Virus record (IMG/VR): IMGVR_UViG_3300032164_000005 | Reading direction: 5' to 3' (one strand) | DNA from: an uncultured virus (IMG/VR IMGVR_UViG_3300032164_000005) | Taxonomy: Duplodnaviria; Heunggongvirae; Uroviricota; Caudoviricetes | Length of the DNA: 20,000 nucleotides | Shown: positions 1-14,839 of the stretch, one piece after another | Layout: each line of letters starts with the position of its first letter | Position numbering within the stretch: the first letter of the stretch is position 1 | Translations under genes and position numbers: made by a program | The notes under the pieces: generated by a model | Databases searched by the model: none | What the model was told of the DNA's origin: nothing | Seen by the model: only the letters and a program-made list of their open reading frames with translations

Positions 1-149
1 GGCTGAACCCGACCCACGGCAACAAGGGCCTGTCAGCGCGGATCGCGCTGCTCGAGCGCAAGATCGCCGCGATCACCAAGGCGCACAAGAAGATGATCAA
101 GAGCCTCTCGGCGAAGATGTCGCATCGCCGTCTGAACAGCGGCTACTAG
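1..149 (+). CDS. 3' end of a basic protein: (R/G/W)LNPTHGNKGLSARIALLERKIAAITKAHKKMIKSLSAKMSHRRLNSGY*; 5'-partial
   Basis: Open frame from nt 3 to TAG 147-149 with GC3-rich codons, followed by a terminator hairpin; not in the ORF track because it lacks a start in the window. Confidence 0.75.
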   Translation, partial: LNPTHGNKGLSARIALLERKIAAITKAHKKMIKSLSAKMSHRRLNSGY

Positions 150-170
150 CCGAGGCTCCGCGTCGAAGAT

Positions 171-215
171 AAGGGCACCCGTCGCAAGGCGGGTGCCCCT
201 TCTGGTTTCTCCTTC
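171..215 (+). terminator. Intrinsic terminator-like hairpin
   Basis: gggcacccgtc-GCAA-ggcgggtgccc stem with a GNRA loop, followed by the pyrimidine-rich cttctggtttctcctt. Confidence 0.7.
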
Positions 216-255
216 CACATCGCACGCCGCGCCCCGCGCGCCGGACGCTGAACGG

Positions 256-264
256 TGGTAGATT
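256..264 (+). promoter_or_regulatory. Extended -10 (TGGTAGATT), leaderless start of the 272 gene
   Basis: TGnTAnnnT 7 nt upstream of ATG 272; no SD. Confidence 0.55.
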
Positions 265-271
265 CGTCGGC

Positions 272-526
272 ATGACTGACCCCGTCTCGGCCTTGCTCGC
301 GCTGCTGCCTCCGACGGTCCGCGTCGTCGTGAGTTCGATCCTCTCGCTGATCGTGCTCGCGTCCGTGATCATCGGCGCGCTTCCGACGTCTTCGTCGAAG
401 AACCCGATCGTGAAGGCCTTGCGGTTCATCGGCGGCCTCGTGCATCACGACGAGGACGGCACGATCAAGCTGCCGTTCTCGAACTACGTGATCCGCGTTG
501 GCGTGACCCCGCAGGAGAAGAAGTGA
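272..526 (+). CDS. Holin-like small membrane protein
   Basis: 84 aa, hydrophobic helix VVVSSILSLIVLASVIIGAL, basic C-terminus, heads the lysis cluster. Confidence 0.6.
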   Translation: MTDPVSALLALLPPTVRVVVSSILSLIVLASVIIGALPTSSSKNPIVKALRFIGGLVHHDEDGTIKLPFSNYVIRVGVTPQEKK

Positions 527-966
527 TGCGAAGACTGCTGTTCCTGGTGGTTCTCATGCTTCCCGTCTCCTCGTGTACGGACGCCCAGTGGCGGCAGTTC
601 GTCGAGATCAACACGAAGGTCGCCAACTACGTGAACGACGCGATCCTCGCTCTGAGCCTCGTAAGCGGCCTCGTGGAGAGCGCGGTGCCGCCGGGCGACC
701 GAGGTACGGTGTCGGACGTCTGGGACGCGATCAGGGCCTGCAACGAGGCTCTCCAGGCGGAGGCGGACGTGGTTCAGCACTCGAGCGCGCCGCTCGACAC
801 GCCCGCGCACATCGCCGCAGCGTTTCCGAGCTTCCTGGCCGCATGGAACCACCTGACCAACGCGTTGCACGGTCACAACCTGCTGCCGTCGTCCGGGCAT
901 CCGATGGCGACCCCTCACACGATCCGCACGCCGCGCCTCGTGCGCGACGCAACGGTGCAGCACTGA
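523..966 (+). CDS. Putative lipoprotein (possible spanin/lysis accessory protein)
   Basis: MRRLLFLVVLMLPVSS-C resembles a signal peptide II with lipobox; GTGA overlap with the holin-like gene. Confidence 0.6.
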   Translation: MMRRLLFLVVLMLPVSSCTDAQWRQFVEINTKVANYVNDAILALSLVSGLVESAVPPGDRGTVSDVWDAIRACNEALQAEADVVQHSSAPLDTPAHIAAAFPSFLAAWNHLTNALHGHNLLPSSGHPMATPHTIRTPRLVRDATVQH

Positions 967-1014
967 GATTACGGCGTGCGTTTCTTACGTCGCATCGCAT
1001 AGGCCAAGTATAAC

Positions 1015-1947
1015 ATGAATTCCCAACCAGGATCTGTCCAAGACATCCCGTGTCCGATGCGTAACGGCCTGAGTCTTTGGATCTGGCCGGGCGGACGCGG
1101 TGAAGGATGGAAGAGCGCGCACCAACAGGCCGACAGGGCCCTGGCGCTCGGTGCGACCGGCGTGATCGCGCAGTCCGGTCTGAGCGCCCCCGTGTGGCTT
1201 GCAGGGCGCGACAAGGGCGATGCGGTGCCCAGGTTCGAGGTCTTCCAGCAGGCGGGCCTGCAGGTGACCGCAGGCCTCGGGATGGACGGATCGGAAGCGA
1301 CCGTCGCGACGATCACGCGCGCTGTCGTCGATGCCGTGGATCTGCCGAACGTGCTGGTCATGGCCGACGAAGAGAAGATGTGGTGGGAAACGCCCACGGG
1401 ACGCGCAGCCGCGAAGTCGATCGTGGCCGCCGTGATCAAGGCGAGGCCTCTCGCGCCGACGCGCGGCATGTGTTGCCCGTGGTGGAAGCCGGAAGTTCAC
1501 TCCGGCGCACCGGACCATGAGTTCTTTCCGCTGTTCCACCACTTCTTCTGCCAGGACTACGGCGCGAGGGGCAAGGACGCCCCGCTGGACAACACGCTCT
1601 CCATGCTCGCGCACTCGCGAGAGTCGTACGCGAAGCGCGGCATCTCCCCGGACCACATCCATCTCGCGTTCCAACTCTACGCGCACAGCCTCGCGAACGC
1701 GGGGCGCATCGTTCTGTGCGGCGAGCCTGTCATGGCTGGGTGGGACGTCGAAGAGATGGACGAGCACATGCATCTCGCGCTGCTGGCTCGCGCTCGTCTG
1801 ATCGCGCTCGGCTATCTGCCGTCACGCGGCGGCCTCGTGTCGTTCCAGGCGGGGGCGGGAATCACTGCGGACGGCATCCTTGGTCCGGTCACGCTGCGCG
1901 CTCTCGCCATCTCCATGTCGGGAATACTGGATCCAGGGCTGAAGTAG
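1015..1947 (+). CDS. Putative cell-wall hydrolase: TIM-barrel-like N-terminal domain plus C-terminal PG_binding_1 domain
   Basis: C-terminal LVSFQAGAGITADGILGPVTLRAL matches the peptidoglycan-binding consensus; the N-terminal alternating beta/alpha pattern with MADEE is reminiscent of GH25-type enzymes (inference); start could be 1057. Confidence 0.7.
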   Translation: MNSQPGSVQDIPCPMRNGLSLWIWPGGRGEGWKSAHQQADRALALGATGVIAQSGLSAPVWLAGRDKGDAVPRFEVFQQAGLQVTAGLGMDGSEATVATITRAVVDAVDLPNVLVMADEEKMWWETPTGRAAAKSIVAAVIKARPLAPTRGMCCPWWKPEVHSGAPDHEFFPLFHHFFCQDYGARGKDAPLDNTLSMLAHSRESYAKRGISPDHIHLAFQLYAHSLANAGRIVLCGEPVMAGWDVEEMDEHMHLALLARARLIALGYLPSRGGLVSFQAGAGITADGILGPVTLRALAISMSGILDPGLK

Positions 1948-1952
1948 CCGCC

Positions 1953-2129
1953 GTGGACGATCCTCCGCACCGTCCATCGGTGAAGCTCGAAGCGGTCACG
2001 TTCGAGCAGGAATTCCAGCACTGGCTACGCACGCGAGGGGCCGTGTACCGGTTCGATCTGACCGACGAACAGATCGAGCGGATCACAGAGCACGCCGCCT
2101 CGATCGCGAGGCGTCACGGAATGACATGA
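1953..2129 (+). CDS. Hypothetical protein (58 aa)
   Basis: GTG start, coding-like codon usage (KLEAVTFEQEFQHWLR...), fills the intergenic gap. Confidence 0.5.
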   Translation: MDDPPHRPSVKLEAVTFEQEFQHWLRTRGAVYRFDLTDEQIERITEHAASIARRHGMT

Positions 2130-2131
2130 CA

Positions 2132-2160
2132 TTGCTTGTCGGTCCGCAAGCGGATAGTAT
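2132..2160 (+). promoter_or_regulatory. Sigma70-type promoter TTGCTT-17-TAGTAT, leaderless start at ATG 2168
   Basis: -35 at 2132-2137, -10 at 2155-2160, ATG 7 nt downstream. Confidence 0.6.
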
Positions 2161-2167
2161 GCCGCCC

Positions 2168-2452
2168 ATGACAACGACGAAGAAGCGCGTCACGGCGAAG
2201 ACGAAGAAGACCAAGAAGCGCGTCACGAAGAAGCGCGTTGCGGCGAAGCGTGGCGGCGGTGCTCCGCAGAAGACCCCCGGAGGACTGAAGAAGATCCTGT
2301 ACGTGCGGGCCCCTGCGGATCTCGTTGCTGCGCTCGATCGGCGCGTGGAGGCGGACCGGAAAAGTACCGGGTTCAGCGTGTCCAGAAGCGACGTTGCGCG
2401 CACGCTTCTCACGAGGGCGCTGAGTGCTCCTGACGGCACTTCCGGCAGCTAG
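2168..2452 (+). CDS. Ribbon-helix-helix DNA-binding protein with a Lys/Arg-rich histone-like N-terminal tail
   Basis: KKRVT-type repeats, then ILYVRAPADLVAALDRRV...SRSDVARTLLTRAL (CopG/Arc-like pattern). Confidence 0.7.
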   Translation: MTTTKKRVTAKTKKTKKRVTKKRVAAKRGGGAPQKTPGGLKKILYVRAPADLVAALDRRVEADRKSTGFSVSRSDVARTLLTRALSAPDGTSGS

Positions 2453-2475
2453 CACGGCTGTGCTATCGAGCACGG

Positions 2476-3078
2476 ATGAACACTCTTCGTTGGCTCTGGT
2501 TCGTCGTGGTTCTGCTCGTCGCGAGTCCTGCGGTCGCACAGCAAGCGAATCCGTGGGGAACGACGACCGATCGTGATGCCGCTCTGATGGTGGCAACGCT
2601 CCTGCATCATTACCCGAGCACTCCTGCTCGAGCATGCATCGAGGCACATCAACTCGAGATCATCGAGCATCTGATGGCCGCCGAGAGGCTCAGCGTGCCG
2701 TCGGGTCTGGCGCTGTCCGTGTCGTTTCACGAGACCCACGTCGGCTGCGATCGGAACGAAGGCGGAGGATGGGGCGCTCCGATCGACATACGGCATCGAC
2801 ACACGGCCGGTACGCCGGAGCACGCGATCCGCGCGCTGCGCCGATCGTTCGAGGTTTGTCACGACTGGGAGGGCGCGGTCAGCAGGTTCCGTTCAGGCCT
2901 CTGCCACCTGCCTCGCGGCGACCGGCGACGCGGGTACGTGCGAAGCGTGCTGCATCTCGCTGGTGTGATCTACCGGGCCGTCGATGGCAACAACCCTCGC
3001 GGGTTCGCGTTCCAGTGGGTCTTCAACCACGAGTGGATCGCGTCGTATCGCGTGGGGCTTCGTCCCGGAGGCGAGTGA
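2476..3078 (+). CDS. Secreted lysozyme-like/lytic transglycosylase-like protein
   Basis: Sec signal peptide (…SPAVA-QQ), LALSVSFHET with a candidate catalytic Glu, and AVSRFRSG…YVRSVL resembling the SLT C-terminal motifs. Confidence 0.6.
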   Translation: MNTLRWLWFVVVLLVASPAVAQQANPWGTTTDRDAALMVATLLHHYPSTPARACIEAHQLEIIEHLMAAERLSVPSGLALSVSFHETHVGCDRNEGGGWGAPIDIRHRHTAGTPEHAIRALRRSFEVCHDWEGAVSRFRSGLCHLPRGDRRRGYVRSVLHLAGVIYRAVDGNNPRGFAFQWVFNHEWIASYRVGLRPGGE

Positions 3079-3230
3079 TGTGTCGCAACGGCTGTACGAA
3101 GCCTGTGGTGGAGGATGACCTGTGCGAAGACTGTCTCGTCGGCGAGCTTGTGGAGTTCGCGGTGAAGTACCGTCGCGAGGAGGATCCCGATCCGCCGGTA
3201 CTGGTCCTGTTCGATCACGGAGGTGAGTGA
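3078..3230 (+). CDS. Small Cys-rich (CxxxC…CxxC) hypothetical protein
   Basis: MCRNGCTKPVVEDDLCEDCL…; TGATG coupling upstream and SD GGAGG. Confidence 0.6.
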   Translation: MCRNGCTKPVVEDDLCEDCLVGELVEFAVKYRREEDPDPPVLVLFDHGGE

Positions 3231-3976
3231 TGCTGGTTCTCGCTGGGAAGCAGATCGAAACGCCGTTCGCGTCCAAGTCATGGCTCGACGACCCGGCGTA
3301 CAGGATCGCGAACGACAAGGCTTCGCGGTCGGCGAACACATGGATTCGCGGCATCACGCTGCACACCACGCACGGAAAGTACCCGCAGCCGATCATCCCT
3401 GGTATGGGCATGCCGGGTTCCGCGCTCGCGAACATCCTGTACTGGAACAGGTCGCCTGCGTACGCCTCGGCCCATCTGCTGCTCGACCAGGACGGCACCG
3501 TGTGCCAGTGCGCCGACCTCGTGACCGAGACGACGTGGCATGCGACGTCGGTCAACCCCATCACGGTTGGCGTCGAGATTTGCCAAGCGGCCGACGGGTC
3601 GTTGTACCAGGGTCAGATCGACGTGGCGGTGAGCTTGTGCGACTGGTTGACGGTGCAGCTTGGCATCCAGCGGCAAGTTCCGCAGGCCTACGCCAACAAG
3701 CCCATCCAGCGGCTTGTGGATGGAGCGCGAGACTTCGTCGGCATCTTCGGTCACCGGGACCAGACGAGCGATCGTGGTCGCGGTGATCCTGGCGACTTCG
3801 TCATGGATGCTCTCGTGAAGGCTGGGTACGAGAGATTCGATCTCGATCGGCTGGAAGACAGGACCGCGTGGCGCGAGCGACAGGCTCGTCTCGGGATCGT
3901 CGCCGACGGTCTCCCTGGGAAGGCCACCGTGGCCGCGCTGAAGTCCAACCCGGACGGGCTGTGGGTGAGACGGTGA
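3227..3976 (+). CDS. N-acetylmuramoyl-L-alanine amidase endolysin (Amidase_2) with a C-terminal PG-binding remnant
   Basis: ITLHTT, SAHLLLDQDG, TWHA…NPITVGVE, IFGHRD and DPG motifs; C-terminal LGIVADGLPGKATVAAL; SD GGAGGTG. Confidence 0.92.
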   Translation: MMLVLAGKQIETPFASKSWLDDPAYRIANDKASRSANTWIRGITLHTTHGKYPQPIIPGMGMPGSALANILYWNRSPAYASAHLLLDQDGTVCQCADLVTETTWHATSVNPITVGVEICQAADGSLYQGQIDVAVSLCDWLTVQLGIQRQVPQAYANKPIQRLVDGARDFVGIFGHRDQTSDRGRGDPGDFVMDALVKAGYERFDLDRLEDRTAWRERQARLGIVADGLPGKATVAALKSNPDGLWVRR

Positions 3977-4239
3977 ACCATCCGGTCGACAAGCAGGGCC
4001 GAAGCGTGAGGCAGGTCGCGCTGCTGAAGTGGTTCGTTCGCAAGAACTACGTGAACCTACCCGACGAGGCGATCAACCGTTACGCCGTCGCGATCTACGA
4101 CTCGCTCAGCGAACTACCCGGTACACGAGGTACGCCCCGCCGATCAGCAGAAGCCAGCCCACAACGTCCACCTCGGTCCGGCCTCGACACCGACGCGGCA
4201 ACAACCCTGGACGACCGCCGCAGCGGCCACGCAGGATAG
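3973..4239 (+). CDS. Hypothetical protein
   Basis: GTGA overlap with the amidase stop; MNHPVDKQGRSVRQVALLKWFVRKNY…. Confidence 0.55.
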   Translation: MNHPVDKQGRSVRQVALLKWFVRKNYVNLPDEAINRYAVAIYDSLSELPGTRGTPRRSAEASPQRPPRSGLDTDAATTLDDRRSGHAG

Positions 4240-4275
4240 GGTTTCGTCGTCGTCTGGTCATGTCTCGGATCGTAG

Positions 4276-4281
4276 TAGAAT
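4276..4281 (+). promoter_or_regulatory. -10 box TAGAAT, leaderless start of the zincin gene
   Basis: TAGAAT 6 nt upstream of ATG 4288; no SD. Confidence 0.55.
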
Positions 4282-4287
4282 CCCACC

Positions 4288-4686
4288 ATGATGTCCCCGT
4301 CGATGCTGCTCACCCTGTTCAACGCGGAGCGGAACGAGTTCGCGAAGTACTTCCCGAAGGCCCGTGAGGCGCAACTGGCGATCTCGAATCGGGAGTGTTC
4401 GATCGGCGGTCGGTGCGGCCTTCGCGATCTTGGGTGGGCCTACGACGGGGATCACACGGTGACGCTCCTGCGTCGGTCGCTGACGCTGCCCGACAACCGG
4501 ATCGTCGGTCTCATTCGCCACGAACTCGGACATCTGGCCGACCCGTACATCAACGAACCAGGGGCGGAGCAGCGGGCCGACGACATCGCCGAGATGGTGT
4601 CCGGCCAGCAGATCCGGTACGATGCAGACGACATCCAGACCGTCGGACGCGGGAAGTACCCGCGTCCCCTCTACCTGCATCGGTGA
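4288..4686 (+). CDS. Minimal zinc metallopeptidase (gluzincin-type)
   Basis: IRHELGH (HExxH) plus downstream EQRADDIA (ExxAD third-ligand motif). Confidence 0.75.
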   Translation: MMSPSMLLTLFNAERNEFAKYFPKAREAQLAISNRECSIGGRCGLRDLGWAYDGDHTVTLLRRSLTLPDNRIVGLIRHELGHLADPYINEPGAEQRADDIAEMVSGQQIRYDADDIQTVGRGKYPRPLYLHR

Positions 4687-4690
4687 CCGC

Positions 4691-4936
4691 ATGGCACGTC
4701 GTCGTCGTCGTCGTCTCAATCCGACAACGCCCGAAGGGGCAGTTCTCGGCACGGCTGCCATCGGCGGTCTCCTCGCGAGCCTGTACTACGCGGTCACGGC
4801 CGTCGGGACGTCGATGAATCCGTCGGAGTCGCGTCGCCGTGCCATGCTTTCGGGCGGCATACTCCTCGGCACGATGACCGTGTTCGCTCTGACCGGCGAG
4901 GCTTCCGCGCGGCGACGCGAAGGGCGCGCGACTTGA
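4691..4936 (+). CDS. RxNP-tagged membrane protein (MARRRRRRLNP…, two predicted TM helices)
   Basis: ATG 4 nt after the zincin stop; hydrophobic segments AVLGTAAIGGLLASLYYAVTAVG and AMLSGGILLGTMTVFALTG. Confidence 0.75.
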   Translation: MARRRRRRLNPTTPEGAVLGTAAIGGLLASLYYAVTAVGTSMNPSESRRRAMLSGGILLGTMTVFALTGEASARRREGRAT

Positions 4937-4976
4937 GACTTGTGCGCGAGGCGAATCGCTGACATATGCTAGCGGT

Positions 4977-5318
4977 ATGCACGCTCGTCGTCTGAACCAG
5001 CAGATCATCGAACTGCTGCCTCCTGCCGTGATCGACACCACGGGGGTCGCGTTGATGGCTCGAGATGCTCACGGCTGCGGACGAGCGCGTGACTGGCTCT
5101 TGGACGGGAGCAGGTCAGACTTCAGCCGCGACTCGCTGAACGTCATCGGGAAGGCCTTGGACTACGCGAAGCAGCACGACGGGCTGCGGCGCATGGTCCT
5201 GGTGATCCCGCAGGCGATGGGTAGGATCGTGGCAAAAGGCCTGCTCACTCACGCGCCGGTCGCGGTCGTGGTGGTCGAGACGCGCGCCGAGGCGCTCAAC
5301 ATTCTGGGGGCACGATGA
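4977..5318 (+). CDS. STAS/SEC14 (SpoIIAA-like) domain protein, putative
   Basis: WLLDGS…GLRRMVLV…VVETRAEALNIL pattern; TATGCT -10 box 6 nt upstream. Confidence 0.5.
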   Translation: MHARRLNQQIIELLPPAVIDTTGVALMARDAHGCGRARDWLLDGSRSDFSRDSLNVIGKALDYAKQHDGLRRMVLVIPQAMGRIVAKGLLTHAPVAVVVVETRAEALNILGAR

Positions 5319-5587
5319 CGAAGGATGAACTGATGGCCCTGCTCGCCGAGATGGACGACGAGATCATCCTGGCGGACGGATTCGAGGATGCTTTCGTCGG
5401 GATCGCCGAGAGGTGCTCGAGCCTGCGCGTCGCGGTGTACGACTACGCCAGGGCCGTCGAGGTGTTGATGAAGCGGGATGGGTCCACGCACGAGGACGCG
5501 GTCGAGTACCTGGACTTCAACGTGCTGGGCGCGTACGTGGGCGAGCAGACGCCCTGGTTCATCACGTACCGGCCGCCGCCGAAGTAG
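5315..5587 (+). CDS. Conserved phage hypothetical protein
   Basis: ADGFEDAFVG…AVYDY…EDAVEYLDFNVLGAYVGEQTP is a pattern I recognise from phage proteins; ATGA coupling. Confidence 0.85.
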   Translation: MTKDELMALLAEMDDEIILADGFEDAFVGIAERCSSLRVAVYDYARAVEVLMKRDGSTHEDAVEYLDFNVLGAYVGEQTPWFITYRPPPK

Positions 5588-5860
5588 TCACCGTCGCGGG
5601 CGTCGCGGATCGACCGTCACCCCTTCGAGGATCATCGGCTGATACCTCGTACCGAACTTCAGTGACCGGATAACCTCGGCCGCATCGACCCTGCTGGTCG
5701 TGAAGATGGACGCGACCTTCTTCTTGCCGCTGTGCGCGATCACCGCGTATCCATCGAGGCCCTTGTACGAAGCGGGGTGGACGCGGAATACCATCGCGGG
5801 TCGTTGTTTGCTCATGGTCGTGATCCTAACAGGGAGACGCCCTGGTTCATCACGTACCGG
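5547..5860 (+). repeat. 26-bp perfect direct repeat agacgccctggttcatcacgtaccgg (5547-5572 and 5835-5860)
   Basis: Read directly; the copies bracket the 5588-5815 gene and its promoter. Confidence 0.9.
5588..5815 (-). CDS. Hypothetical basic protein (MSKQRPAMVFRVHPASYKG…, 75 aa)
   Basis: ATG 5815 is 7 nt downstream of the extended -10 TGTTAGGAT. Confidence 0.7.
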   Translation of the reverse strand: MSKQRPAMVFRVHPASYKGLDGYAVIAHSGKKKVASIFTTSRVDAAEVIRSLKFGTRYQPMILEGVTVDPRRPRR

Positions 5861-6018
5861 TCGTAGCCGGATGCGTGGGGGTGGGGTACGAGAAGAAGAT
5901 GATGTAGACGGCCAGCGCGCCAAGCAGGATCGCTCCTGGCGTCACCTTCTTGCCGGTCAGAATCTGAGAAATGGCGTCTGGATTGGTTCGTCGCCTGCTC
6001 ATGGTCGCGATCCTAACA
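5809..6018 (-). promoter_or_regulatory. Duplicated promoter/start unit TGTTAGGATC(A/G)CGACCATGAGCA (5809-5831 and 5996-6018)
   Basis: 22/23 identity; each copy has an extended -10, a 7-nt spacer and an ATG. Confidence 0.8.
5850..6002 (-). CDS. RxNP-tagged single-TM micro-protein MSRRRTNPDAISQILTGKKVTPGAILLGALAVYIIFFSYPTPTHPATTGT (50 aa)
   Basis: Translated by hand (below the ORF-track cutoff); has its own extended -10 promoter, an Arg-NP N-terminus and one TM helix. Confidence 0.75.
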   Translation of the reverse strand: MSRRRTNPDAISQILTGKKVTPGAILLGALAVYIIFFSYPTPTHPATTGT

Positions 6019-6207
6019 CGGCATCCAGACGGCCTCGACGCCGTCGGTCGTGAAGCCAGATGCCACCAGGACGCCCCGGAACGCCTCCGGGAAGGCCCGG
6101 ACGACCACGCGGCGCAGGCGTCGCCCCCGGTAGGCGAAGGCGACCCGTGCGCCCGCCTGCATGGCCTGCTGGAGGATCGTGAGGATGTGTTCAGGGCAGT
6201 GCAGCAT
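6013..6207 (-). CDS. Hypothetical protein
   Basis: MLHCPEHILTILQQAMQAGARVAFAYRG…; continues the minus-strand cluster; start uncertain. Confidence 0.45.
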   Translation of the reverse strand: MLHCPEHILTILQQAMQAGARVAFAYRGRRLRRVVVRAFPEAFRGVLVASGFTTDGVEAVWMPC

Positions 6208-6586
6208 CGTCCACCTCCACATCGTCCATCTGGGGGCGCGTCCCCTGGGCCCCGCCGGGCATGTCGTCCAGGGCCGCCGCCCTTCTCTCGTAGAGCGCGT
6301 CGTACTCCTCCTGGGTCACCTTCCTCGCGTCCGGGCTAGCAGGCGCGACGGCAGCTTCCTCGATCTGACGGATCGCGGCATCCAGGTACGGGCGCACCCA
6401 GGAGTCCAGGAAGAGGCGCAGCGGTGACATCCGGTCGGTCGAGTGCAGCAGTTCGCGTAGCTCGTCGGACAGGCGCGTCGGGTCATTCAGGTGCTCCTGC
6501 GCCTTCTTGAGCAGGCCCATGATCTGGTAGTTGATCTTGAGCTTGGGGCGCGCGTGACCGCGCCCGTTGCGAGGAGTGCGTCTCAT
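6191..6586 (-). CDS. Hypothetical helical protein
   Basis: ATGA-coupled to the upstream gene; coding-like codon usage. Confidence 0.7.
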   Translation of the reverse strand: MRRTPRNGRGHARPKLKINYQIMGLLKKAQEHLNDPTRLSDELRELLHSTDRMSPLRLFLDSWVRPYLDAAIRQIEEAAVAPASPDARKVTQEEYDALYERRAAALDDMPGGAQGTRPQMDDVEVDDAALP

Positions 6587-6777
6587 GTCCCTGCTCCGTG
6601 TGTGGTCGTGACGTGGTCGTGGATGTCGCCTGACGACGTCGTGGTGTAACCACAGTCGCACCGATACGACACCGCCGTGTGTCCGCCCGTGTTCTCGGGG
6701 TGCCAGAAGTCCGCTGTGCGGTCCTCGAACTCGACCACGGCGCGGGCTTCCTTGTTTCTGAACTCACGACGGTTCAT
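6583..6777 (-). CDS. Small C2H2-type zinc-finger protein
   Basis: YRCDCGYTTTSSGDIHDHVTTTH; ATGA coupling. Confidence 0.7.
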   Translation of the reverse strand: MNRREFRNKEARAVVEFEDRTADFWHPENTGGHTAVSYRCDCGYTTTSSGDIHDHVTTTHGAGT

Positions 6778-6995
6778 GTCGTCGCCACCTTTCCTGCTGC
6801 GAGGAACGCCTTGAAGTCCGTGCGGAACTTCTTCCACACGAACTGCTGGCACCGGCACCCCTTCGCGATGCAGGGCCCTTTGCCTTCGCCCATGTGCAGA
6901 TCCCGGTGCATGGACACCGGGCCGTCGCCCCTGTGCCCGCACTGGCACAGGCTCTTCGGGCCATCGAACTTCATCGCCTCGAGTACGGTCATCAT
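6774..6995 (-). CDS. Small Cys/His-rich protein
   Basis: CQCGH…H…C…CRCQQF; strong SD AAGGAGG. Confidence 0.75.
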   Translation of the reverse strand: MMTVLEAMKFDGPKSLCQCGHRGDGPVSMHRDLHMGEGKGPCIAKGCRCQQFVWKKFRTDFKAFLAAGKVATT

Positions 6996-7025
6996 CGCGA
7001 ACCTCCTTCGTGGTACAACTGGGTC

Positions 7026-8243: not shown

Positions 8244-8528
8244 CGTCGTACCCTCCACTGGGTCAGACGGCTGCCTACTGTGATTATTCTCGGAAATCGT
8301 AACCGATGGGAATACCGTTCGATTTTGTCGCTGCCGGATATCAGGCCGGGCTCGGATATCTGGCCGGGCTACCCGCCGGGGCCGGGATATCCGACGAGGG
8401 CTTTCCCCGTACGGCATCGCGCTCACGCGCGAGGTCACCGACAGAAAACGACGGTATTCCCATCGGTTACGATTTTGTAGAATATACCCAGAAGGGCTGC
8501 GTCTGACCGTGTGGAGGGTGTGACGATG
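8241..8528. repeat. Imperfect ~90-bp inverted repeat forming divergent promoter/5'UTR units, with a 25-bp perfect core
   Basis: aaatcgtaaccgatgggaataccgt (8294-8318) is the exact reverse complement of 8451-8475; both arms continue to agaata…gtctgacc..gtggagggt..gacgATGacg. Confidence 0.9.
8335..8391. repeat. Tandem 18-bp repeat cggatatc(a/t)ggccgggct x2 plus a third GATATC
   Basis: Copies at 8335-8352 and 8353-8370; GATATC again at 8386-8391. Confidence 0.8.
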
Positions 8529-8852
8529 ACGCAGACGACGACGATCGAGTGTCTGGAGTGCGGACGGCGCGACGCGGATCGCATGCTGACCCTGCGCGAG
8601 CAGGGCCAGACCGAGGGCGGCTGGGAGTTTCCGGTCTGCGCGCAGGACGCAAGCCGCGTGATCGGCCAGTGGTACGCCCACACGCACGGCGCGGTTCGCC
8701 AGCACGTCCTCGCGACGGGCGACGTGGTCGAGGGGCGCTGGATCAGCCGCGAGGCGGTGCTGGCGCTCAGCAAGCGTGGGATCTGGTTCGCGGGCGGGAC
8801 CATCATCGACGATGGGGCGATCGAGACTGTCTACCGTGGGAGGACGCGATGA
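8526..8852 (+). CDS. Hypothetical protein with N-terminal CxxC
   Basis: SD GGAGGG; MTQTTTIECLECGRR…. Confidence 0.75.
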   Translation: MTQTTTIECLECGRRDADRMLTLREQGQTEGGWEFPVCAQDASRVIGQWYAHTHGAVRQHVLATGDVVEGRWISREAVLALSKRGIWFAGGTIIDDGAIETVYRGRTR

Positions 8853-9334
8853 GCACGATGTTCGAGACCTCGATGGCCCGGTCCGGGCAGATCACCGTGA
8901 CCGCATGGCTCGACCCGATCCTCGGCGTCGTCACCGTGCAGCACGGCACCCGCGTGACCAACCGGATCCTGGTCGGTCGCCGCGCACCGGACTGGTCGGT
9001 CCGAGAACTGATCGCCTCGGCGATCGGCTGTGGCGTCGGTGCGGTAGGCGCACGGATGGACGACGACTCGTGCGACCAGTGCGGTCGCCACGTCGATCGG
9101 TGCCAGTGTCCTGCCGAGGACGACGGCGGCGACGCCATGCTGTCCGTCGAGACCGCGCTCGGGCTCGCCGAGACGCTGCGGTCGGACGGGCTGCGCGCCG
9201 AGGTGCGTGGCGACTCGATCGTGTTCGCGGGCGGCGCGTACGGAGAGCACTCGCTGTACATCCCGGTCTCGAGCAGGGATCGCGTGATGGCGCACTGGAA
9301 CGGGTACGTGACCAACAACGGCAGGAGTCTGTGA
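8849..9334 (+). CDS. Hypothetical protein (internal CxxC…CxC)
   Basis: ATGA coupling, SD GGAGG; MSTMFETSMARSG…. Confidence 0.7.
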   Translation: MSTMFETSMARSGQITVTAWLDPILGVVTVQHGTRVTNRILVGRRAPDWSVRELIASAIGCGVGAVGARMDDDSCDQCGRHVDRCQCPAEDDGGDAMLSVETALGLAETLRSDGLRAEVRGDSIVFAGGAYGEHSLYIPVSSRDRVMAHWNGYVTNNGRSL

Positions 9335-9588
9335 TGAGCCTTCAGGCGTACTATCAGGACTTCTGCCGGGGCTTCTGGGCGGATCCCGACGCGCGAGAGT
9401 GCGCGTGCCGTGGGTCCGGTTACGCCCTCTCGGACGTCGATACGTGGCACAAGTGCCGCTACCACCACGTTTCGGGGCAGCCGCACCCGGAGGACGAGCC
9501 CGTGCGGGACGAGGCCGCTGACGATCGGTCCGAGGCGGACATCGAGGCGGCACACCGGCAGGCGAACGACATCAACGGCGCAGAATGA
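9334..9588 (+). CDS. Hypothetical Cys/His protein
   Basis: TGATG coupling; CACRGSG…DTWHKCRYH…PHPE. Confidence 0.75.
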   Translation: MSLQAYYQDFCRGFWADPDARECACRGSGYALSDVDTWHKCRYHHVSGQPHPEDEPVRDEAADDRSEADIEAAHRQANDINGAE

Positions 9589-9599
9589 GGAGCACGACA

Positions 9600-10049
9600 A
9601 TGCTGTACACGATTGCCAACAAGATTTCTGGGCTCCGCCTCGGCACCTACACCGCGCCAACCAGCGACGCCGCGCTCGACGCACAGGCCCGTGACGCGGG
9701 CTACGCAAACCGCGCCGACATGCTCTCGGTGATCGGCGGCGACGGATCCGACATCTCGGTCGAACAGACCGAGATCATCGTGTACGTCGCTCCCGACACC
9801 CTCGGCACGGACGCGGCCTACCCCGAGGCTTTCGCCCGTTACGCCGAGGAGCGCCTCGCGACGATCTACGCCGGGGCAGAGATCACTGTGGAGATCGGCG
9901 AGGGGTGCGACAGCGTGCCTGACGGGGACGAGCGCGTGATGCAGGATCTGTGGGACAGCTACTGCGGGCTCACGAACCACGACTACGAGATCCTCGCGCT
10001 CGCGGTCCCCGAGGACCGGCGCGCGGGCTACCTCACAGGGATCGAGTGA
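9600..10049 (+). CDS. Hypothetical acidic protein
   Basis: SD GAGGAG; MLYTIANKISGLRLGTY…AALDAQARDAGY. Confidence 0.8.
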   Translation: MLYTIANKISGLRLGTYTAPTSDAALDAQARDAGYANRADMLSVIGGDGSDISVEQTEIIVYVAPDTLGTDAAYPEAFARYAEERLATIYAGAEITVEIGEGCDSVPDGDERVMQDLWDSYCGLTNHDYEILALAVPEDRRAGYLTGIE

Positions 10050-10061
10050 GCAAGTGAAGCT

Positions 10062-10092
10062 CCGGGTTGCAGGGTACGTTCCTGCAACCCGG
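10062..10092. other. Intergenic 12-bp perfect hairpin
   Basis: ccgggttgcagg-gtacgtt-cctgcaacccgg; no U-tract. Confidence 0.75.
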
Positions 10093-10125
10093 CACGACCA
10101 GTTTGCAGGAGACACGGAGGTTCAC

Positions 10126-10356
10126 ATGGACACGGGGTACGAGATCCAGAAGCTCGATCGGCGCACCTGGGTGACCGTCGCTCGCGGCGACGACCTGGAA
10201 CGTCTTACGACCAAGGCTCTGAAGATCGCGAAGCAGGATCGCACCGACGTTCGCGTTCGCGACTACGGCAAGGTGGTGGTGTTCACGGCGTACCGCGACG
10301 GGGCCTACAGCGGCCGTCGCGCGCCCGACGCCGACTTCGGCGACGGAGAGGGATGA
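10126..10356 (+). CDS. Hypothetical protein
   Basis: SD GGAGG; MDTGYEIQKLDRRTWVTVARG…. Confidence 0.75.
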   Translation: MDTGYEIQKLDRRTWVTVARGDDLERLTTKALKIAKQDRTDVRVRDYGKVVVFTAYRDGAYSGRRAPDADFGDGEG

Positions 10357-10561
10357 GACCGATGAATCACGCTGAACTGGCTACGAGCGCCCCGACGGCG
10401 TTACAGGCGCGTTCGAGTGCGTAGCCGAGGATGACGACGGAGTTCTCGGCGGTGCTGGCTGCGAGTGCATGAAGTTCAAGAAGGCGCGCAACCCAACAAC
10501 ATCGAGCCCGAGTGATCCTCGCGCTTTCGGCGTTCAGGGAGTGGTGGTAGCCTCCACCATC
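10353..10561 (+). pseudogene. Probable disrupted Cys-rich gene remnant running in frame into the next gene
   Basis: The ATGA-coupled ATG at 10353 closes after 23 codons, while a start-less frame from 10376 reads TGYERPDGVTGAFECVAEDDDGVLGGAGCECMKFKKARNP (compare CRCQQF in 6774-6995). Confidence 0.35.
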
Positions 10562-11626
10562 ATGCCCTACGCCACCCGAGTGAACCCGTTCGTCAGCCCA
10601 GCCGACCGCAAGAAGGTGCTGATGGCGCTGTTCAAGAAGTTCAAGTCCATGGGCGACGGCAAGGTGATCAGCGGTGGCAAGCACAACGTGATGCTTGCGA
10701 CCGAGGGCTACCGCACCGTGACGCTCGAGACGCTGCCGGACGACGAGATCCTGCGTCTCGCGCGCAAGCACGGCATCCTGCGGAGCGCGGGGGAGACGCG
10801 TGAGAATCCTGCTGGCCGTTCCGTGGCCGACGATCTTCGCAAGATGAAGGTCGGGCAATCACAGGCTCTCGCGGCCCCTCACTTCTCGGTGACACGGCAC
10901 AGCCGGACGTCGTGGGTACTCTTCGACTCGAGAAACCGTGAGCGCGCTCGGTGGGGTACGGCCGTTCAGATCGCCGAGGACATCAGGCATGTGGATCAGC
11001 ACGGCACTCTGCCGCCTCCGTCCGGCGCTCGCTGGAACCCGATCACCACGACGCAGGGCCGCCGCCTCCGTGCGAAGGGTTCGAAGCGTCGGAGCGCGGG
11101 GGAGACGCGTGAGAATCCTGCTGGCCGTTCCGTGGCCGACGATCTTCGCAAGATGAAGGTCGGGCAATCACAGGCTCTCGCGGCCCCTCACTTCTCGGTG
11201 ACACGGCACAGCCGGACGTCGTGGGTACTCTTCGACTCGAGAAACCGTGAGCGCGCTCGGTGGGGTACGGCCGTTCAGATCGCCGAGGACATCAGGCATG
11301 TGGATCAGCACGGCACTCTGCCGCCTCCGTCCGGCGCTCGCTGGAACCCGATCACCACGACGCAGGGCCGCCGCCTCCGTGCGAAGGGTTCGAAGCGTCT
11401 CGCCGGGCGCTTCCTGGCAGCACGTCGCGCGATCGAGGCCGAGGGCGGCGTGCCGAAGGCCCGCGTCGGCCGCATGAGCTACCAGAGCGCGGCGTACATC
11501 CTCGCGCACGGCAAGAAGACGAAGAAGCGCCGCCACACGGTCGTGCGCGGCGCGGAGCACGCTCGTGAGCGGCCCGAGAGCGACGTCAACGTCTGGGACT
11601 GGATCAACAAGACCTTCGGGCACTGA
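10562..11626 (+). CDS. Basic modular protein with five RxNP motifs (candidate polyprotein)
   Basis: MPYATRVNP…GETRENP…ARWNP…GETRENP…ARWNP…; TGGTAGCCT -10 box 8 nt upstream; alternative start 10469 (MKFKKARNP). Confidence 0.8.
   Translation: MPYATRVNPFVSPADRKKVLMALFKKFKSMGDGKVISGGKHNVMLATEGYRTVTLETLPDDEILRLARKHGILRSAGETRENPAGRSVADDLRKMKVGQSQALAAPHFSVTRHSRTSWVLFDSRNRERARWGTAVQIAEDIRHVDQHGTLPPPSGARWNPITTTQGRRLRAKGSKRRSAGETRENPAGRSVADDLRKMKVGQSQALAAPHFSVTRHSRTSWVLFDSRNRERARWGTAVQIAEDIRHVDQHGTLPPPSGARWNPITTTQGRRLRAKGSKRLAGRFLAARRAIEAEGGVPKARVGRMSYQSAAYILAHGKKTKKRRHTVVRGAEHARERPESDVNVWDWINKTFGH
10781..11398 (+). repeat. Exact in-frame 309-bp tandem duplication (10781-11089 and 11090-11398)
   Basis: No differences seen between copies; the ORF track shows identical duplicated translations. 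Confidence 0.95.
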
Positions 11627-11632
11627 GGCAAC

Positions 11633-11872
11633 ATGAAGATCGAATTCAACAGCGTGGATACGCTCGAGCACATCATCAGCCGCAGTCTGAAGGGGTTCAA
11701 CGCCAGGGTGACTCCCGTCCGTTCCACCAGGGGCGTGGCCGTCGAGATCCAGGGCGTGGCCGCCTACGACTCCCGATCGATAAACCTCTTCGTCAGGGAG
11801 ATCGACAAGAGCGGAGTGGCGCACGGTCCGCCGTTCAACCTGCGAGTGAAACCGTCGATCTTCATCTTCTGA
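11633..11872 (+). CDS. Hypothetical protein
   Basis: SD GAGG; TGATG coupling to the next gene. Confidence 0.75.
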   Translation: MKIEFNSVDTLEHIISRSLKGFNARVTPVRSTRGVAVEIQGVAAYDSRSINLFVREIDKSGVAHGPPFNLRVKPSIFIF

Positions 11873-12147
11873 TGAGCCCGCCGGAGATCACGTTCCGCGC
11901 GGCGAGCATCGCTGACCTCGAGAGCAAGATCGCCGCCTACGAAGTGCTCTTTGATGTCGTCCCATGGGTCGGCGTCGAAGGCACCGTTACCGCGTCCGAC
12001 GGCGACCCGGCGTGGCTCAGCAAGCCGCACCAGATCGTGGCCGTCGGCCGGAAGTTCGTCACCGTCAACCTCGGGGTCGAGGGAGCGTTCCGCATGGACG
12101 TCGAGAGGAACGCGAACGTGGCTCGGTACGCACTGAGGGCACGATGA
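11872..12147 (+). CDS. Hypothetical protein
   Basis: Translationally coupled on both sides. Confidence 0.7.
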   Translation: MSPPEITFRAASIADLESKIAAYEVLFDVVPWVGVEGTVTASDGDPAWLSKPHQIVAVGRKFVTVNLGVEGAFRMDVERNANVARYALRAR

Positions 12148-12851
12148 CTCCGCTCGTCTCCTGCATCTGCCTGACGACATGGCCCCGCCGTCGGGCGTAC
12201 CTGCCCGACGCGCTGCGTTCGTACCGCCAGCAGACGTACCCGGAGCGCGAACTCATCGTCGTGAACGACGGTGAACCGCTCGTGTCGCACGCGGCCGACG
12301 TCGCCGTCGTGAACCTGCCCGACGTCGGCCGGAAGTGGACGATCGGCGAGAAGCGCAACGTCGGCGTCCGCAAGGCTCGAGGCACGTACCTCGCGACCTG
12401 GGACGACGACGACGTCTCGATGCCGGATCGTCTGGCCGTCCAGGTGGATGCCGCGCGACGCTGGGGTGCCGACTGCGTCCTGGCCGACAAGATGCTCGTA
12501 GCCGACGAAGACATGCACCTCCTGGGTGACTGCGACAGGGGTCTCGTGAAGCCGGTACAGCCGTCCGCGCTCACGCGCCGAGACGCCGTGATCGCCGTCG
12601 GCGGATACCCGGTCTCGAACTACCGCGAGGACGCCGAGGTCGTTGAGCGGATCAAGCTTCTGCTACGTGGCGTTGTCACGACGATGCCGGGCTCGAACTG
12701 GTACGTGATGCGTCGGCACGGTGGCAACACGGCGACCGGGGACAACTCGAGCTACGCGATCTGTGCCATGCGGTCGCCGGATGTGGTTGAATACCAGCGC
12801 AGGGTCGATGCCATCAGGAGCGGGCCCGGCGGAGAGAACGTGACGCCATGA
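12144..12851 (+). CDS. Glycosyltransferase family 2 (GT-A)
   Basis: PLVSCICLT…QQTYPERELIVVNDG…GEKRNVGVRKARGTYLATWDDDD…PDRL. Confidence 0.93.
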   Translation: MTPLVSCICLTTWPRRRAYLPDALRSYRQQTYPERELIVVNDGEPLVSHAADVAVVNLPDVGRKWTIGEKRNVGVRKARGTYLATWDDDDVSMPDRLAVQVDAARRWGADCVLADKMLVADEDMHLLGDCDRGLVKPVQPSALTRRDAVIAVGGYPVSNYREDAEVVERIKLLLRGVVTTMPGSNWYVMRRHGGNTATGDNSSYAICAMRSPDVVEYQRRVDAIRSGPGGENVTP

Positions 12852-13222
12852 GACGCAGAAGGAACCCGTCGTCGGCCCGCACCCGGAACATCGTTCGCGG
12901 TGCCCAGATCGGCGGCGTCGCAGCACTGACGGTGCTCGTGATCGACAGCGTGATCTCGAGGATCCCCGCGTTGAACGGGAGTAGCTTCGTTCGCGGCATC
13001 ACACGCCTTGCGGCCGGTGGCGGACTCGCCTACCTCGCCTCGGCCCGCAAGACGATCCCCGACATCGTTCCGCAGGGCATCGTGGGGGGCGCAGTGCTGA
13101 TGACGGCCCTGGACGTAGGAACGAGCCTGATCTCGCGCCCTGCAGGGCTCCCTGCCCTCCCTGGACCTGCCGCTGCGGTGCTGGCGGCCGGGCAGCCGTG
13201 GCCCCCGCAACTGATGGCGTGA
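12848..13222 (+). CDS. RxNP-tagged membrane protein (MRRRRNPSS…, 2-3 hydrophobic Gly/Ala-rich helices)
   Basis: ATGA/TGATG-coupled between two GT genes; IGGVAALTVLVI, LAAGGGLAYLA and IVGGAVLMTAL segments. Confidence 0.8.
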   Translation: MRRRRNPSSARTRNIVRGAQIGGVAALTVLVIDSVISRIPALNGSSFVRGITRLAAGGGLAYLASARKTIPDIVPQGIVGGAVLMTALDVGTSLISRPAGLPALPGPAAAVLAAGQPWPPQLMA

Positions 13223-13956
13223 TGCTGATGCCCGCTGTGGTCACGGCGGTCTGGCACGGCGATCCGCAGCGAGAGCAACTGCTGCGCGATCACGTCGCCA
13301 ATTTGGCAAGGCAGACGATCCCCGTCGAAGCGATCTACGTCTTCGACGGAGGCGATCTGCCGCCGCCCTGGTTGAAGGCTCGCGCTGTGTGCGTGAAGGA
13401 ACCGCTGACGATCTACCAAGCGTGGAACGTCGGACTCTCGCTCGTTGGCGCATCCGTGGTGATGAACCTGAACCTCGATGACCGGCTGGCTCCCAACGCC
13501 GTCGAGGTCATGCAGCGGGCGCTGCTCGGATCGGATGCGGTCGCGATCGGCGGTGATTGGAAGGTCTGCTACTCGCAGCGCGACACGGACAACGTCCAGC
13601 CGGTCTACCCAGCGACGCGTCTGCCCTTCGTGAGGGCGTGGCCTCCGCCGCAAGGCGCGTTGACCCGGCTGGGCAGCGGGACGGGCGATCGTGGCACCTA
13701 CGGGCCCGCGACGATGTGGCGCACGAGCCTGCACCTGAGTCTCCCGCGCTTCCCGTGGAGGGCGGCCGACGGAACGCTTCTGAGGGTCGTCGGCGATCAG
13801 GCGTGGTGGATCCTGATCACCGAGCACCTGCAGCAGAAGATCCTCCGGCTGCCGCTGGTCGTCGGGAACTACTACAGCCACCCGAGCGGGCAAGCGGAGT
13901 TCCGCTCGGGCGACGAGTCCAAGCTCCTTGTGAACCCTGGAATCTCGCTGATGTGA
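13222..13956 (+). CDS. Glycosyltransferase family 2-like (GT-A)
   Basis: LARQT…IYVFDGG…TIYQAWNVGL…VMNLNLDDRL. Confidence 0.82.
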   Translation: MLMPAVVTAVWHGDPQREQLLRDHVANLARQTIPVEAIYVFDGGDLPPPWLKARAVCVKEPLTIYQAWNVGLSLVGASVVMNLNLDDRLAPNAVEVMQRALLGSDAVAIGGDWKVCYSQRDTDNVQPVYPATRLPFVRAWPPPQGALTRLGSGTGDRGTYGPATMWRTSLHLSLPRFPWRAADGTLLRVVGDQAWWILITEHLQQKILRLPLVVGNYYSHPSGQAEFRSGDESKLLVNPGISLM

Positions 13957-13981
13957 TACCGTTTCGCGCAGGAGCAGACCA

Positions 13982-14839
13982 ATGGCGTGCCGACCGAACC
14001 CGTACCATTCTCACCGAGGCTTGAAGCAGGATCTGGAGCAGTACCTGGAGAAGGCTGGAGTCTTCGCCGAGATCAAGCAGCGACGCGATGGCGTTGTTGA
14101 TGTCAAATCGCCCTACCAGTCGATGAAGCCGGAGACGGTTCGCGGCATCCTGAAGATCGCGAAGCGGCATCGGTTCCTGGCGGATAGCCCGAAGAGGGTG
14201 AAGGAAGAGATCAGGGCAGGCCTTCATCCGCTCGACCGCGCTACGGGTCGCCACGAAGACGAAGGATGGCTTGAGTCCCACAGCCGTCGCGTCGTCGTGC
14301 TCAGGCCGCCCACCGAACGCACTCGCGGCGTTCCGTCGCCGAGCATCTTCTCGGTCGGATCGACGCACGAACTCGAGGAACTGGCCGGGCGGCATGTGGG
14401 CCCATTCGACCCCGGCGAGTACGGCGACGAGCCCGAGTACGGCGACGAGGACGTCTACGACAACCCCAGCTTCAAGCACACCGCCCGCTACGCCGTCAGG
14501 AAGGGCAAGCGGACCGTGAGCTACCACCGCAGCTACTCGCTCGCCCTGGCGGCCCGTCGGCGCGCCGGGAAGGGCGCAACAGTCGTCGATCGGAAGAGCC
14601 TAGCGCGAGAGAACCCGACGAGCGGCATCGATCGCATGCCCGGCGAGACCCGCGAAGCCGCCGCGAAGCGGATGTCGATCCACGCATGGGACAAGGGTTG
14701 GCAGAGCGCGCACGAGAGGGCCATCCGGGCGTGGCGCGAGGTCGAGAAACACTCCAGCAGTCCGGCGAAGCGCCGCGCTGCTCTCGCGATCATGCGAACG
14801 CACGCCAAGCACTCGGGCGGGATGATCATCAGGGCGTGA
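13982..14839 (+). CDS. Basic modular protein with RPNP, YDNP and RENP motifs (candidate polyprotein)
   Basis: SD GGAG and upstream TGATACCGT -10 box; MACRPNP…VYDNP…LARENP…. Confidence 0.8.
   Translation: MACRPNPYHSHRGLKQDLEQYLEKAGVFAEIKQRRDGVVDVKSPYQSMKPETVRGILKIAKRHRFLADSPKRVKEEIRAGLHPLDRATGRHEDEGWLESHSRRVVVLRPPTERTRGVPSPSIFSVGSTHELEELAGRHVGPFDPGEYGDEPEYGDEDVYDNPSFKHTARYAVRKGKRTVSYHRSYSLALAARRRAGKGATVVDRKSLARENPTSGIDRMPGETREAAAKRMSIHAWDKGWQSAHERAIRAWREVEKHSSSPAKRRAALAIMRTHAKHSGGMIIRA

Follow-up and report, generated by a model that had tools for sequence, protein, structure and literature searches.

The R-x-N-P motif of an uncultured Caudoviricetes genome: enriched and conserved at protein junctions, and possibly an uncut structural joint

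Why would a viral genome repeat the same short motif, arginine, any residue, asparagine and proline (R-x-N-P), in proteins that otherwise have little in common? The question is raised by a 20,000-nt stretch of DNA from an uncultured virus of the Caudoviricetes (IMG/VR record IMGVR_UViG_3300032164_000005), called here the window, in which the motif is found near the start of small proteins and inside larger ones. Proteins and open reading frames (ORFs) are designated by their coordinates or by their start position in the window. A preliminary description of this DNA had reported R-x-N-P in six otherwise unrelated proteins, had put the number of independent occurrences at about ten against about one by chance, and had proposed a role in virion loading and/or cleavage, the motif doubling as N-terminal leader and polyprotein separator. 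Our analysis showed that R-x-N-P is real, enriched, selected at the protein level and conserved in relatives. As to its function, we tentatively favour a lineage-specific junction motif, selected at the protein level and left uncut, in which a basic arm or linker would be closed off by an Asx-Pro turn or a helix cap.

Translation of the window confirmed every R-x-N-P site given in the preliminary description, coordinates included, as well as its remark on codons, since the Arg and Pro codons vary from site to site. Enrichment was then measured on a model of 49 genes and 6404 residues, from which the second copy of a tandem duplication had been dropped, by shuffling residues within each protein. 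The dipeptide N-P was observed 26 times against 8.6 +/- 2.9 expected and R-x-N-P 10 times against 0.80 +/- 0.87 expected, and neither count was reached in any of 5000 shuffles. The curated annotations of two high-GC actinophages were used as controls. The 87 proteins of Mycobacterium phage Che8 contained 37 N-P (29.8 expected) and 4 R-x-N-P (1.75 expected), while 95 proteins from the non-structural half of Gordonia phage Cafasso contained 27 (16.2 expected) and 3 (1.39 expected), respectively. Real proteomes favour N-P slightly, and R-x-N-P in the controls was about 2.2-fold above its own expectation; when the expectation for the window was scaled by this ratio, the ten sites had a Poisson P of 1.8e-5. 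An N-P within the first 12 residues was counted by hand in 7 of 49 window proteins, the cut ORF 3-149 being left out, against 4 of 182 control proteins (Fisher P = 0.002, or 0.007 when the doubtful ORF 7026 is excluded).

The pentamer AAYCC occurred 28 times in the frame that encodes N-P, once and twice in the other sense phases and 14 times on the antisense strand. Because of this frame bias and of the varied codons, selection acts on the protein and not on the DNA, and a DNA-level cause, such as a site or a recombination linker, was ruled out. Where a residue was present two positions before the Asn, it was Arg in 12 of 26 sites, duplicates counted. The x of R-x-N-P was L, T, R, V, E, W, P or H, and the residue after N-P was mostly T, S, D, A or I.

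Several sites were found beyond those listed earlier: MKFKKARNP at 10469, MNP followed by RHNP in the minus-strand gene 18035-18328, NPSESRRR in a loop of the 4691 protein, and MTRRRRNP at the start of the antisense ORF 4106-4261, which is probably spurious. The last of these (minus strand, GC content at third codon positions, GC3, of 0.67) has a hydrophobic segment at its end. Opposite it lies the 3' part of ORF 3976-4239 on the plus strand, in which the coding signal weakens from about 4100 onwards. Two carriers stand near the ends of the window:

1 to 149, plus strand: 3'-terminal part of an ORF truncated by the start of the window, beginning (G/R/W)-L-N-P-T-H, with (G/R/W)LNP at nt 1-11 (GC3 0.94)
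18035 to 18328, minus strand: 97-residue protein starting MNPLRHEYRWTRHNP, with RHNP at 18284-18295 (gene call in the public protein collection)

In the cluster of the 18035-18328 protein, RHNP is kept in four of four members, and MNP reads MSP in one. The public protein collection holds gene calls for 4691-4936, 5850-6002, 10469-11626, 13982-14839 and 18035-18328, and none for 7026-7142, 10562-11626 or the antisense 4106-4261. These data bear on whether the motif arises from chance, base composition or faulty gene calling, an explanation to which we give next to no credence. Small ORFs are easily over-called in DNA of 65% GC, two of the arginine-NP ORFs (7026-7142 and the minus-strand 4106-4261) are unsupported, and the small carriers have a moderate GC3 of 0.70-0.74; against this, the count was reached in 0 of 5000 shuffles, the frame bias was 28:1:2, the controls rose to only about twice their expectation, and homologues on other contigs keep the motif.

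The motif occurs in two kinds of protein. The first kind follows the pattern M-(R/K)3-6-(x)-N-P, with a hydrophobic 17-residue segment 5-13 residues further on, and comprises four ORFs, one of them doubtful:

4691 to 4936, plus strand: 81-residue protein starting MAR6-L-N-P, with RLNP at 4712-4723 (gene call in the protein collection)
5850 to 6002, minus strand: 50-residue protein starting MSRRR-T-N-P, motif at 5979-5990, hydrophobic segment at residues 20-36 (gene call on 5 contigs)
7026 to 7142, plus strand: 38-residue ORF starting MRRKRRR-N-P, motif at 7041-7052, hydrophobic segment at residues 16-32 (doubtful gene)
12848 to 13222, plus strand: 124-residue membrane protein starting MRRRR-N-P, with RRNP at 12857-12868, between two glycosyltransferase-like genes

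In all four, a 17-residue Kyte-Doolittle window of at least 1.5 starts at residue 15-20, and the tail that precedes the hydrophobic segment holds 3-6 Arg or Lys. The 4691 protein has hydrophobic segments at residues 16-32 and 51-67, and the loop has a second N-P followed by RRR; a 99%-identical variant keeps the motif and is uninformative. The 12848 protein has a homologue, 61% identical, that begins MKRRRRNP; near-identical sequences aside, no other homologue of these small proteins was found. ORF 7026-7142 lies opposite in orientation to its neighbours, with a GC3 of 0.74, and is absent from the protein collection.

The 124-residue, multi-helix carrier overlaps head to tail with the glycosyltransferase family 2 (GT2) gene before it and the weak GT2-like gene after it (12144-13956), a layout that recalls phage surface-polysaccharide modification cassettes. 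An N-glycosylation sequon for the adjacent glycosyltransferases was judged an improbable meaning of the motif, N-P-S/T being the disfavoured form. A sortase-type NPxTG signal was rejected by eye: ORF 7026 has N-P-D-T-G and a hydrophobic segment, but it has neither a signal peptide nor a passenger domain and is itself doubtful. The consensus of the Tat signal is an S/T-R-R-x-F-L-K core followed by an h-region and an A-x-A site; the F-L-K part and the A-x-A site were absent from all of the tails, and these proteins gave no NCBIfam match of any sort.

In the second kind of carrier, R-x-N-P stands at the joints of mosaic soluble proteins:

10469 to 11626, plus strand: 385-residue mosaic soluble protein, with ARNP at 10484-10495, RVNP at 10577-10588, RENP at 10799-10810 and 11108-11119, and RWNP at 11030-11041 and 11339-11350
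10781 to 11389, plus strand: exact tandem duplication of a single module together with its two joints, RENP and RWNP; absent from a 282-residue form of the protein
13982 to 14839, plus strand: 285-residue mosaic soluble protein starting MACRPNP, with RPNP at 13991-14002, YDNP at 14456-14467 and RENP at 14606-14617 (gene call in the collection)

For the first of these proteins, a start at 10562 (MPYATRVNP) competes with the start at 10469 (MKFKKARNP). The GC3 of 10469-10561 is weak (0.68 against 0.82 for the remainder of the ORF), and one homologue of the family starts just ahead of RVNP; either start puts a basic residue, x, N and P within the first nine residues. The stretches 10781-11080 and 11090-11389 are 100% identical, with a repeat unit of 309 bp, and because the repeat is exact, the RENP sites at 10799 and 11108 and the RWNP sites at 11030 and 11339 count once each. 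The 282-residue form without the repeat was found on three other contigs, so the 309-bp duplication represents a recent, polymorphic gain of a module. Among homologues at identities of 34-50%, R37/V38/N39/P40, R111/N113/P114 and R188/N190/P191 are invariant, as seen in an alignment of three sequences 43-50% identical to the reference, while the segments between these sites vary in sequence and in length. One member of the family is extended at its N-terminus by a further module, after which come RRNP and YGNP.

The 13982 protein shows the same arrangement. Its YDNP and RENP sites bracket a module of about 45 residues common to other proteins, internal here and N-terminal in two others. The N-P that follows the shared module is invariant in three of three sequences, the next module differs in each, and one of these proteins has further RKNP and KRNP joints downstream. 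When five homologues from other contigs were combined, 17 N-P were found against 2.1 expected and 12 R-x-N-P against 0.22 expected, and Ala frequently preceded the Arg of the motif. The description of the six carriers as otherwise unrelated is close to right: the two soluble proteins have only a non-significant likeness at their N-termini (BLASTP E = 0.096, which does not establish paralogy). No match was found between the 10054 and 13982 proteins.

Searches with the mosaic proteins gave no Pfam match even at E <= 5, and no carrier had a match at E <= 0.01. A sequence search of the PDB gave a single row at chance level (E = 0.03), the 282-residue form had no usable match in the ESM Atlas, and the best Z in a VIA wide search with the mosaic-protein model was 4.0. 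Residues 209-243 of the 13982 protein (14606-14710), directly after RENP, matched the NCBIfam 'CrpP-related protein' with an E of 7.8e-4 and 19 bits against a cut-off of 35 bits. No weight was given to P0013, a protein of coiled-coil repeats in which eight KENP/KELP joints occur, its match having an E of only 1.3e-4.

If R-x-N-P is an uncut joint, its Asn-Pro would form a tight Asx-Pro turn or helix cap, at which a flexible arginine-rich or Ala/Arg-rich arm or linker would end and the next structural element would start. In the small membrane proteins, the M-(R/K)n arm would be a cytoplasmic, positive-inside anchor that might also bind acidic lipid or nucleic acid, and N-P would set it apart from the membrane helix that starts 5-13 residues on. 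In the mosaic soluble proteins, the same joint would lie between independently swappable modules, for which reason the motif would survive both module replacement and tandem duplication. We infer that Asn-Pro forms a turn or cap, how the small proteins lie in the membrane, and that cleavage does not take place.

Two general rules of protein structure are in keeping with such a joint: Asn-Pro followed by T, S or D suits the N-terminal positions of helices and Asx-Pro turns, and a basic tail ahead of a membrane helix is the ordinary positive-inside arrangement. N-terminal anchors of this type follow von Heijne's rule, and the small carriers share with them a short basic N-terminal tail and a hydrophobic helix without a recognisable signal-peptidase site; they differ in that an invariant Asn-Pro closes the tail, in that the tetrapeptide recurs in soluble proteins and in that no family model matches. 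With helix N-caps and Asx-Pro turns the sites share Asn-Pro followed by T, S or D, and helices are predicted, at low model confidence, at or just past the Pro. In the AlphaFold model of the 282-residue form, calculated from a three-sequence alignment and with a mean predicted local distance difference test (pLDDT) score of 45, a helix at residues 114-125 begins at P114 of RENP and another, at residues 44-61, begins four residues past P40 of RVNP; residues 106-205, which include the helix start at P114, are below a pLDDT of 50.

The carriers lie in unlike gene settings: the lysis region, a cluster of glycosyltransferases, and a set of small genes without an assigned function. A shared destination such as the virion is unlikely for this reason, and the settings fit a generic structural device better than a single destination. 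The part of the preliminary description that made R-x-N-P the end of a leader and a separator of modules is thus borne out in its anatomy, its protein-level selection and its conservation, whereas the virion-loading or cleavage role attached to it found no support, since no structural gene and no capsid-type protease was recognised in the window and the carriers' settings are unlike.

Occurrences of MRRRRNP elsewhere in IMG/VR also bear on the structural joint. We read 80 loci out of at least 117 stretches, with about 55 residues per ORF examined. Among these listed matches, an ORF of 35 residues or more was present at 36 of the 80 loci, and only 2 of these 36 had a hydrophobic 17-residue window with a Kyte-Doolittle value of 1.6 or more, so that MRRRRNP was rejected as a general start of membrane proteins. 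About a third of the 80 loci (judged by eye) belonged to one family, which was placed by tblastn on the C-terminal tails of large terminases; in this family, among the listed loci L005-L084, RRRRNP joins the large-terminase body to an acidic C-terminal tail. Since MRRRRNP occurs in these tails, a run of arginines ending in N-P need not go with a membrane and is therefore a wider device. Among the same listed loci, ten more start proteins that resemble, by eye, the product of 5315-5587 (phrog_13182).

The uncut structural joint was ranked first because of the modelled helix starts, the preference for N-P-T/S/D, the positive-inside layout, the unlike settings and the terminase tails. Several points weigh against it. 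Passive linkers and caps are normally degenerate, and caps are not lineage-specific, whereas R, N and P here stay constant even as the residues around them and entire modules are replaced, and the motif is about 12-fold enriched; such constancy of three residues is rather what would be expected of a site that a partner recognises. The strictly placed Arg, two positions ahead of the Asn in the 12 of 26 sites counted above, has no obvious role in a cap, and the structural support is weak, given the mean pLDDT and the alignment depth of the model. If R-x-N-P is a structural joint only, it provides an annotation rule: in soil phage genomes that are rich in orphans and lack helpful domain models, it shows where modules meet and where genes truly start. 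Should a peptidase or a docking partner read it, the motif would be a defined, mutable handle on the assembly, processing or delivery of batteries of small effector modules by phages.

The window contains two genes that could supply a peptidase:

4288 to 4686, plus strand: 132-residue HELGH protein, candidate small zincin-like metallopeptidase, 4 nt upstream of the 4691 carrier
7323 to 8240, minus strand: ArdC-N protein with a C-terminal HEVAH, of anti-restriction type and zincin peptidase-like (family match; HEVAH from the translation)

The HELGH protein matched the Pfam SprT-like family with an E of 0.025, below the cut-off. Its model (pLDDT 74) gave abylysin and selecase as the best Foldseek rows, followed by SPRTN and Wss1, with E values of only 0.01-0.3, so that a fold like that of these minimal zinc metallopeptidases is predicted with weak scores. 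A homologue, 53% identical, is encoded at 3982-4371 of L002, a related 23.9-kb metagenome contig that has nine window proteins in common. A conserved PGAEQRADDIAE was seen downstream of HELGH.

With these genes at hand, R-x-N-P might be the recognition or cleavage site of a phage zinc metallopeptidase, either the HELGH or the ArdC-type HEVAH protein, that frees modules and trims the arginine leaders, a reading that we hold to be doubtful. Put in its strongest form, a shared cleavage code cut by a small phage zincin (HELGH or ArdC-type) to free swappable effector modules and trim the leaders, it appears unlikely. The tetrapeptide is strictly conserved at the joints of swapped modules, as protease sites are in polyproteins; the module that is internal here begins other proteins within a few residues of the N-P position; and one homologue of the 10469 family starts MATRRYAIRVNPF, an 11-residue leader ending in N-P. 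Two zincin-like genes are present in the window, and the HELGH gene is conserved in L002, which carries both mosaic families. Nothing, however, connects either peptidase with R-x-N-P, the HELGH protein falls short of the family cut-off and resembles known folds only weakly (E >= 0.01), and the co-occurrence of the HELGH gene with the mosaic families rests on two genomes. A cut at MRRRRN|P would free only peptides of 6-10 residues and would strip the membrane proteins of their positive-inside charge. If the cleavage code were true, module fusion, fission and tandem duplication would be functionally neutral, and the 'polyvalent protein' strategy used by phages and plasmids would gain its first defined processing site in R-x-N-P.

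Cleaved leaders are familiar in viruses, namely the T4 capsid-targeting sequence removed by gp21, the adenovirus core precursors and the proteins of staphylococcal phage 80alpha cut by the host Prp. A short N-terminal leader common to unrelated proteins is what the carriers share with these systems; the differences are that the leaders here are arginine leaders of 6-11 residues before membrane helices and that no head protease, scaffold or capsid gene was recognised in the window. Matches to families gave no head-maturation or capsid-type protease in the window, and no structural gene was recognised among the matches of its genes.

Polyvalent proteins, described by Iyer et al. (2017; PMC5512222), combine two or more recognised conflict-type domains in one chain, often a zincin domain among them. 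Small swappable modules are common to them and to the mosaic proteins, and the same element encodes an ArdC-N plus HExxH protein (7323-8240), which matches the commonest architecture of polyvalent proteins with two recognised domains. Processing of polyvalent proteins into units by zincin domains is proposed in that text, which favours cleavage, while ArdC and N4 vRNAP are described there as travelling uncut, which does not. The mosaics differ in being short (282-385 residues), with neither a recognised domain nor a peptidase domain of their own. The processing and delivery of effector modules proposed for polyvalent proteins are not known to have been tied to a sequence, and the word 'linker' had 0 matches in the text of PMC5512222.

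The invariance of three defined residues amid variable surroundings, and their exposed positions, either N-terminal or in stretches modelled with low confidence, would also suit an uncleaved docking motif, the targeting half of the preliminary proposal, through which a single partner (a host factor, for instance, or a component of the capsid or of packaging) would gather unrelated proteins at one place. We consider this improbable: no candidate partner was found, a membrane protein of a glycosyltransferase cluster and proteins of the lysis region are unlikely to share a destination, and several copies per protein, up to seven N-P in P0017, are unusual for a targeting tag.

FlhB/SctU-type proteins are reported to cleave themselves at the Asn-Pro bond of NPTH. 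The window opens with LNPTH, the NPTH string being at nt 6-17, and the question arises whether the bond is broken here by attack of the Asn side chain, as in RsgI, reovirus mu1/VP5 and the FlhB-type NPTH switch, which we regard as very improbable. Documented Asn|Pro cases do come from a bacterial membrane protein and from virus capsid proteins (PMC10328401), so that a conserved Asn-Pro in viral or membrane proteins is common to the RsgI periplasmic domain, mu1/VP5, FlhB/SctU and the present carriers. According to the same source, the known cases depend on a turn or the end of a helix that is folded and has polarising neighbours, and their sites lie in folded domains, whereas the sites here lie in basic tails or in linker stretches modelled below a pLDDT of 50, with no likeness in sequence or fold found. 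The residues after N-P vary, and no carrier matches any Pfam family, the autoproteolytic ones included.

Even less probable, in our judgement, is that R-x-N-P slows the ribosome and so paces folding or membrane insertion at the joints. The Arg three residues before the Pro is placed as in SecM RAGP and in RAPP, which are arrest cores. The core of these peptides is R-A-P-P, R-G-P-P or R-A-G-P, and R-A-P tolerates few substitutions (PMC12992588); here it reads R-(L/T/R/V/E/W/P/H)-N-P, with x free and Asn in place of Pro or Gly. Where the motif lies at residues 6-11, hardly any nascent chain precedes it.

No published description of R-x-N-P as a protein motif was found in the literature searched. 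The open full-text literature, with subscription journals outside the coverage, gave no use of RxNP as a protein motif as judged by titles and the starts of abstracts, and none that combined Asn-Pro, arginine-rich, bacteriophage and membrane.

The rest of the window (GC 63-68%) contains nearly exclusively orphan genes. About 49 genes were derived from the GC3 frame plot and the ORF list, which also gave the layout that opens the list of features:

3 to 5587: genes on the plus strand
5588 to 8240: block of genes on the minus strand
8511 to 14999: genes on the plus strand
14996 to the end of the window: genes on the minus strand
523 to 966: lipoprotein-like start
1015 to 1947: weak match to PG_binding_1
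3227 to 3976: Amidase_2 endolysin (family match)
12144 to 12851: GT2 glycosyltransferase (family match)
13198 to 13956: second GT2-like gene, weak
17282 to 17809: Rv2179c/DnaQ-like exonuclease (family match)
18325 to 18882: MazG domain (family match)

No tRNA gene was found in the window. Proteins of the window are also present on public contigs of up to 73-75 kb, and the related contig L002 encodes in addition Phage_integrase, SprT-like and ParB-HTH genes; our reading is that the element is part of a temperate phage or of a phage-like integrative element.

Relatives were scarce in the collections scanned. No match came from IMG/VR when it was scanned with the 13982 protein, with the ArdC-like protein or with the alignment of the 10469 family, nor from a metagenome scan with the 12848 family or a genome-collection scan with the 10469 family. 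The conserved RVNP module had no tblastn match in phages. For the 2476-3078 family, the matches were at the level of domains only, on unrelated contigs of 29-45% GC without other window proteins. Among phages and plasmids, no near DNA match was found except for 63 bp in the DnaQ-like gene (17703-17765, 90.5%), which lie within DnaQ-like exonuclease genes of 16 records (15 Mycobacterium and 1 Mycolicibacterium), Che8 among them.

Two sets of repeats were also seen. An imperfect inverted repeat at 8227-8542, with 107-nt arms that are 77% complementary and 102 nt apart, fills the intergenic space from which the ArdC-like gene and the plus-strand operon diverge, and could be a regulatory or origin-like region. 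Two pairs of direct repeats of 35-37 nt, 5547-5581/5835-5869 (91%) and 5798-5834/5985-6021 (84%), lie on either side of the strand switch; the TPWFITYR end of the 5315-5587 gene is encoded by one copy, which is repeated downstream.

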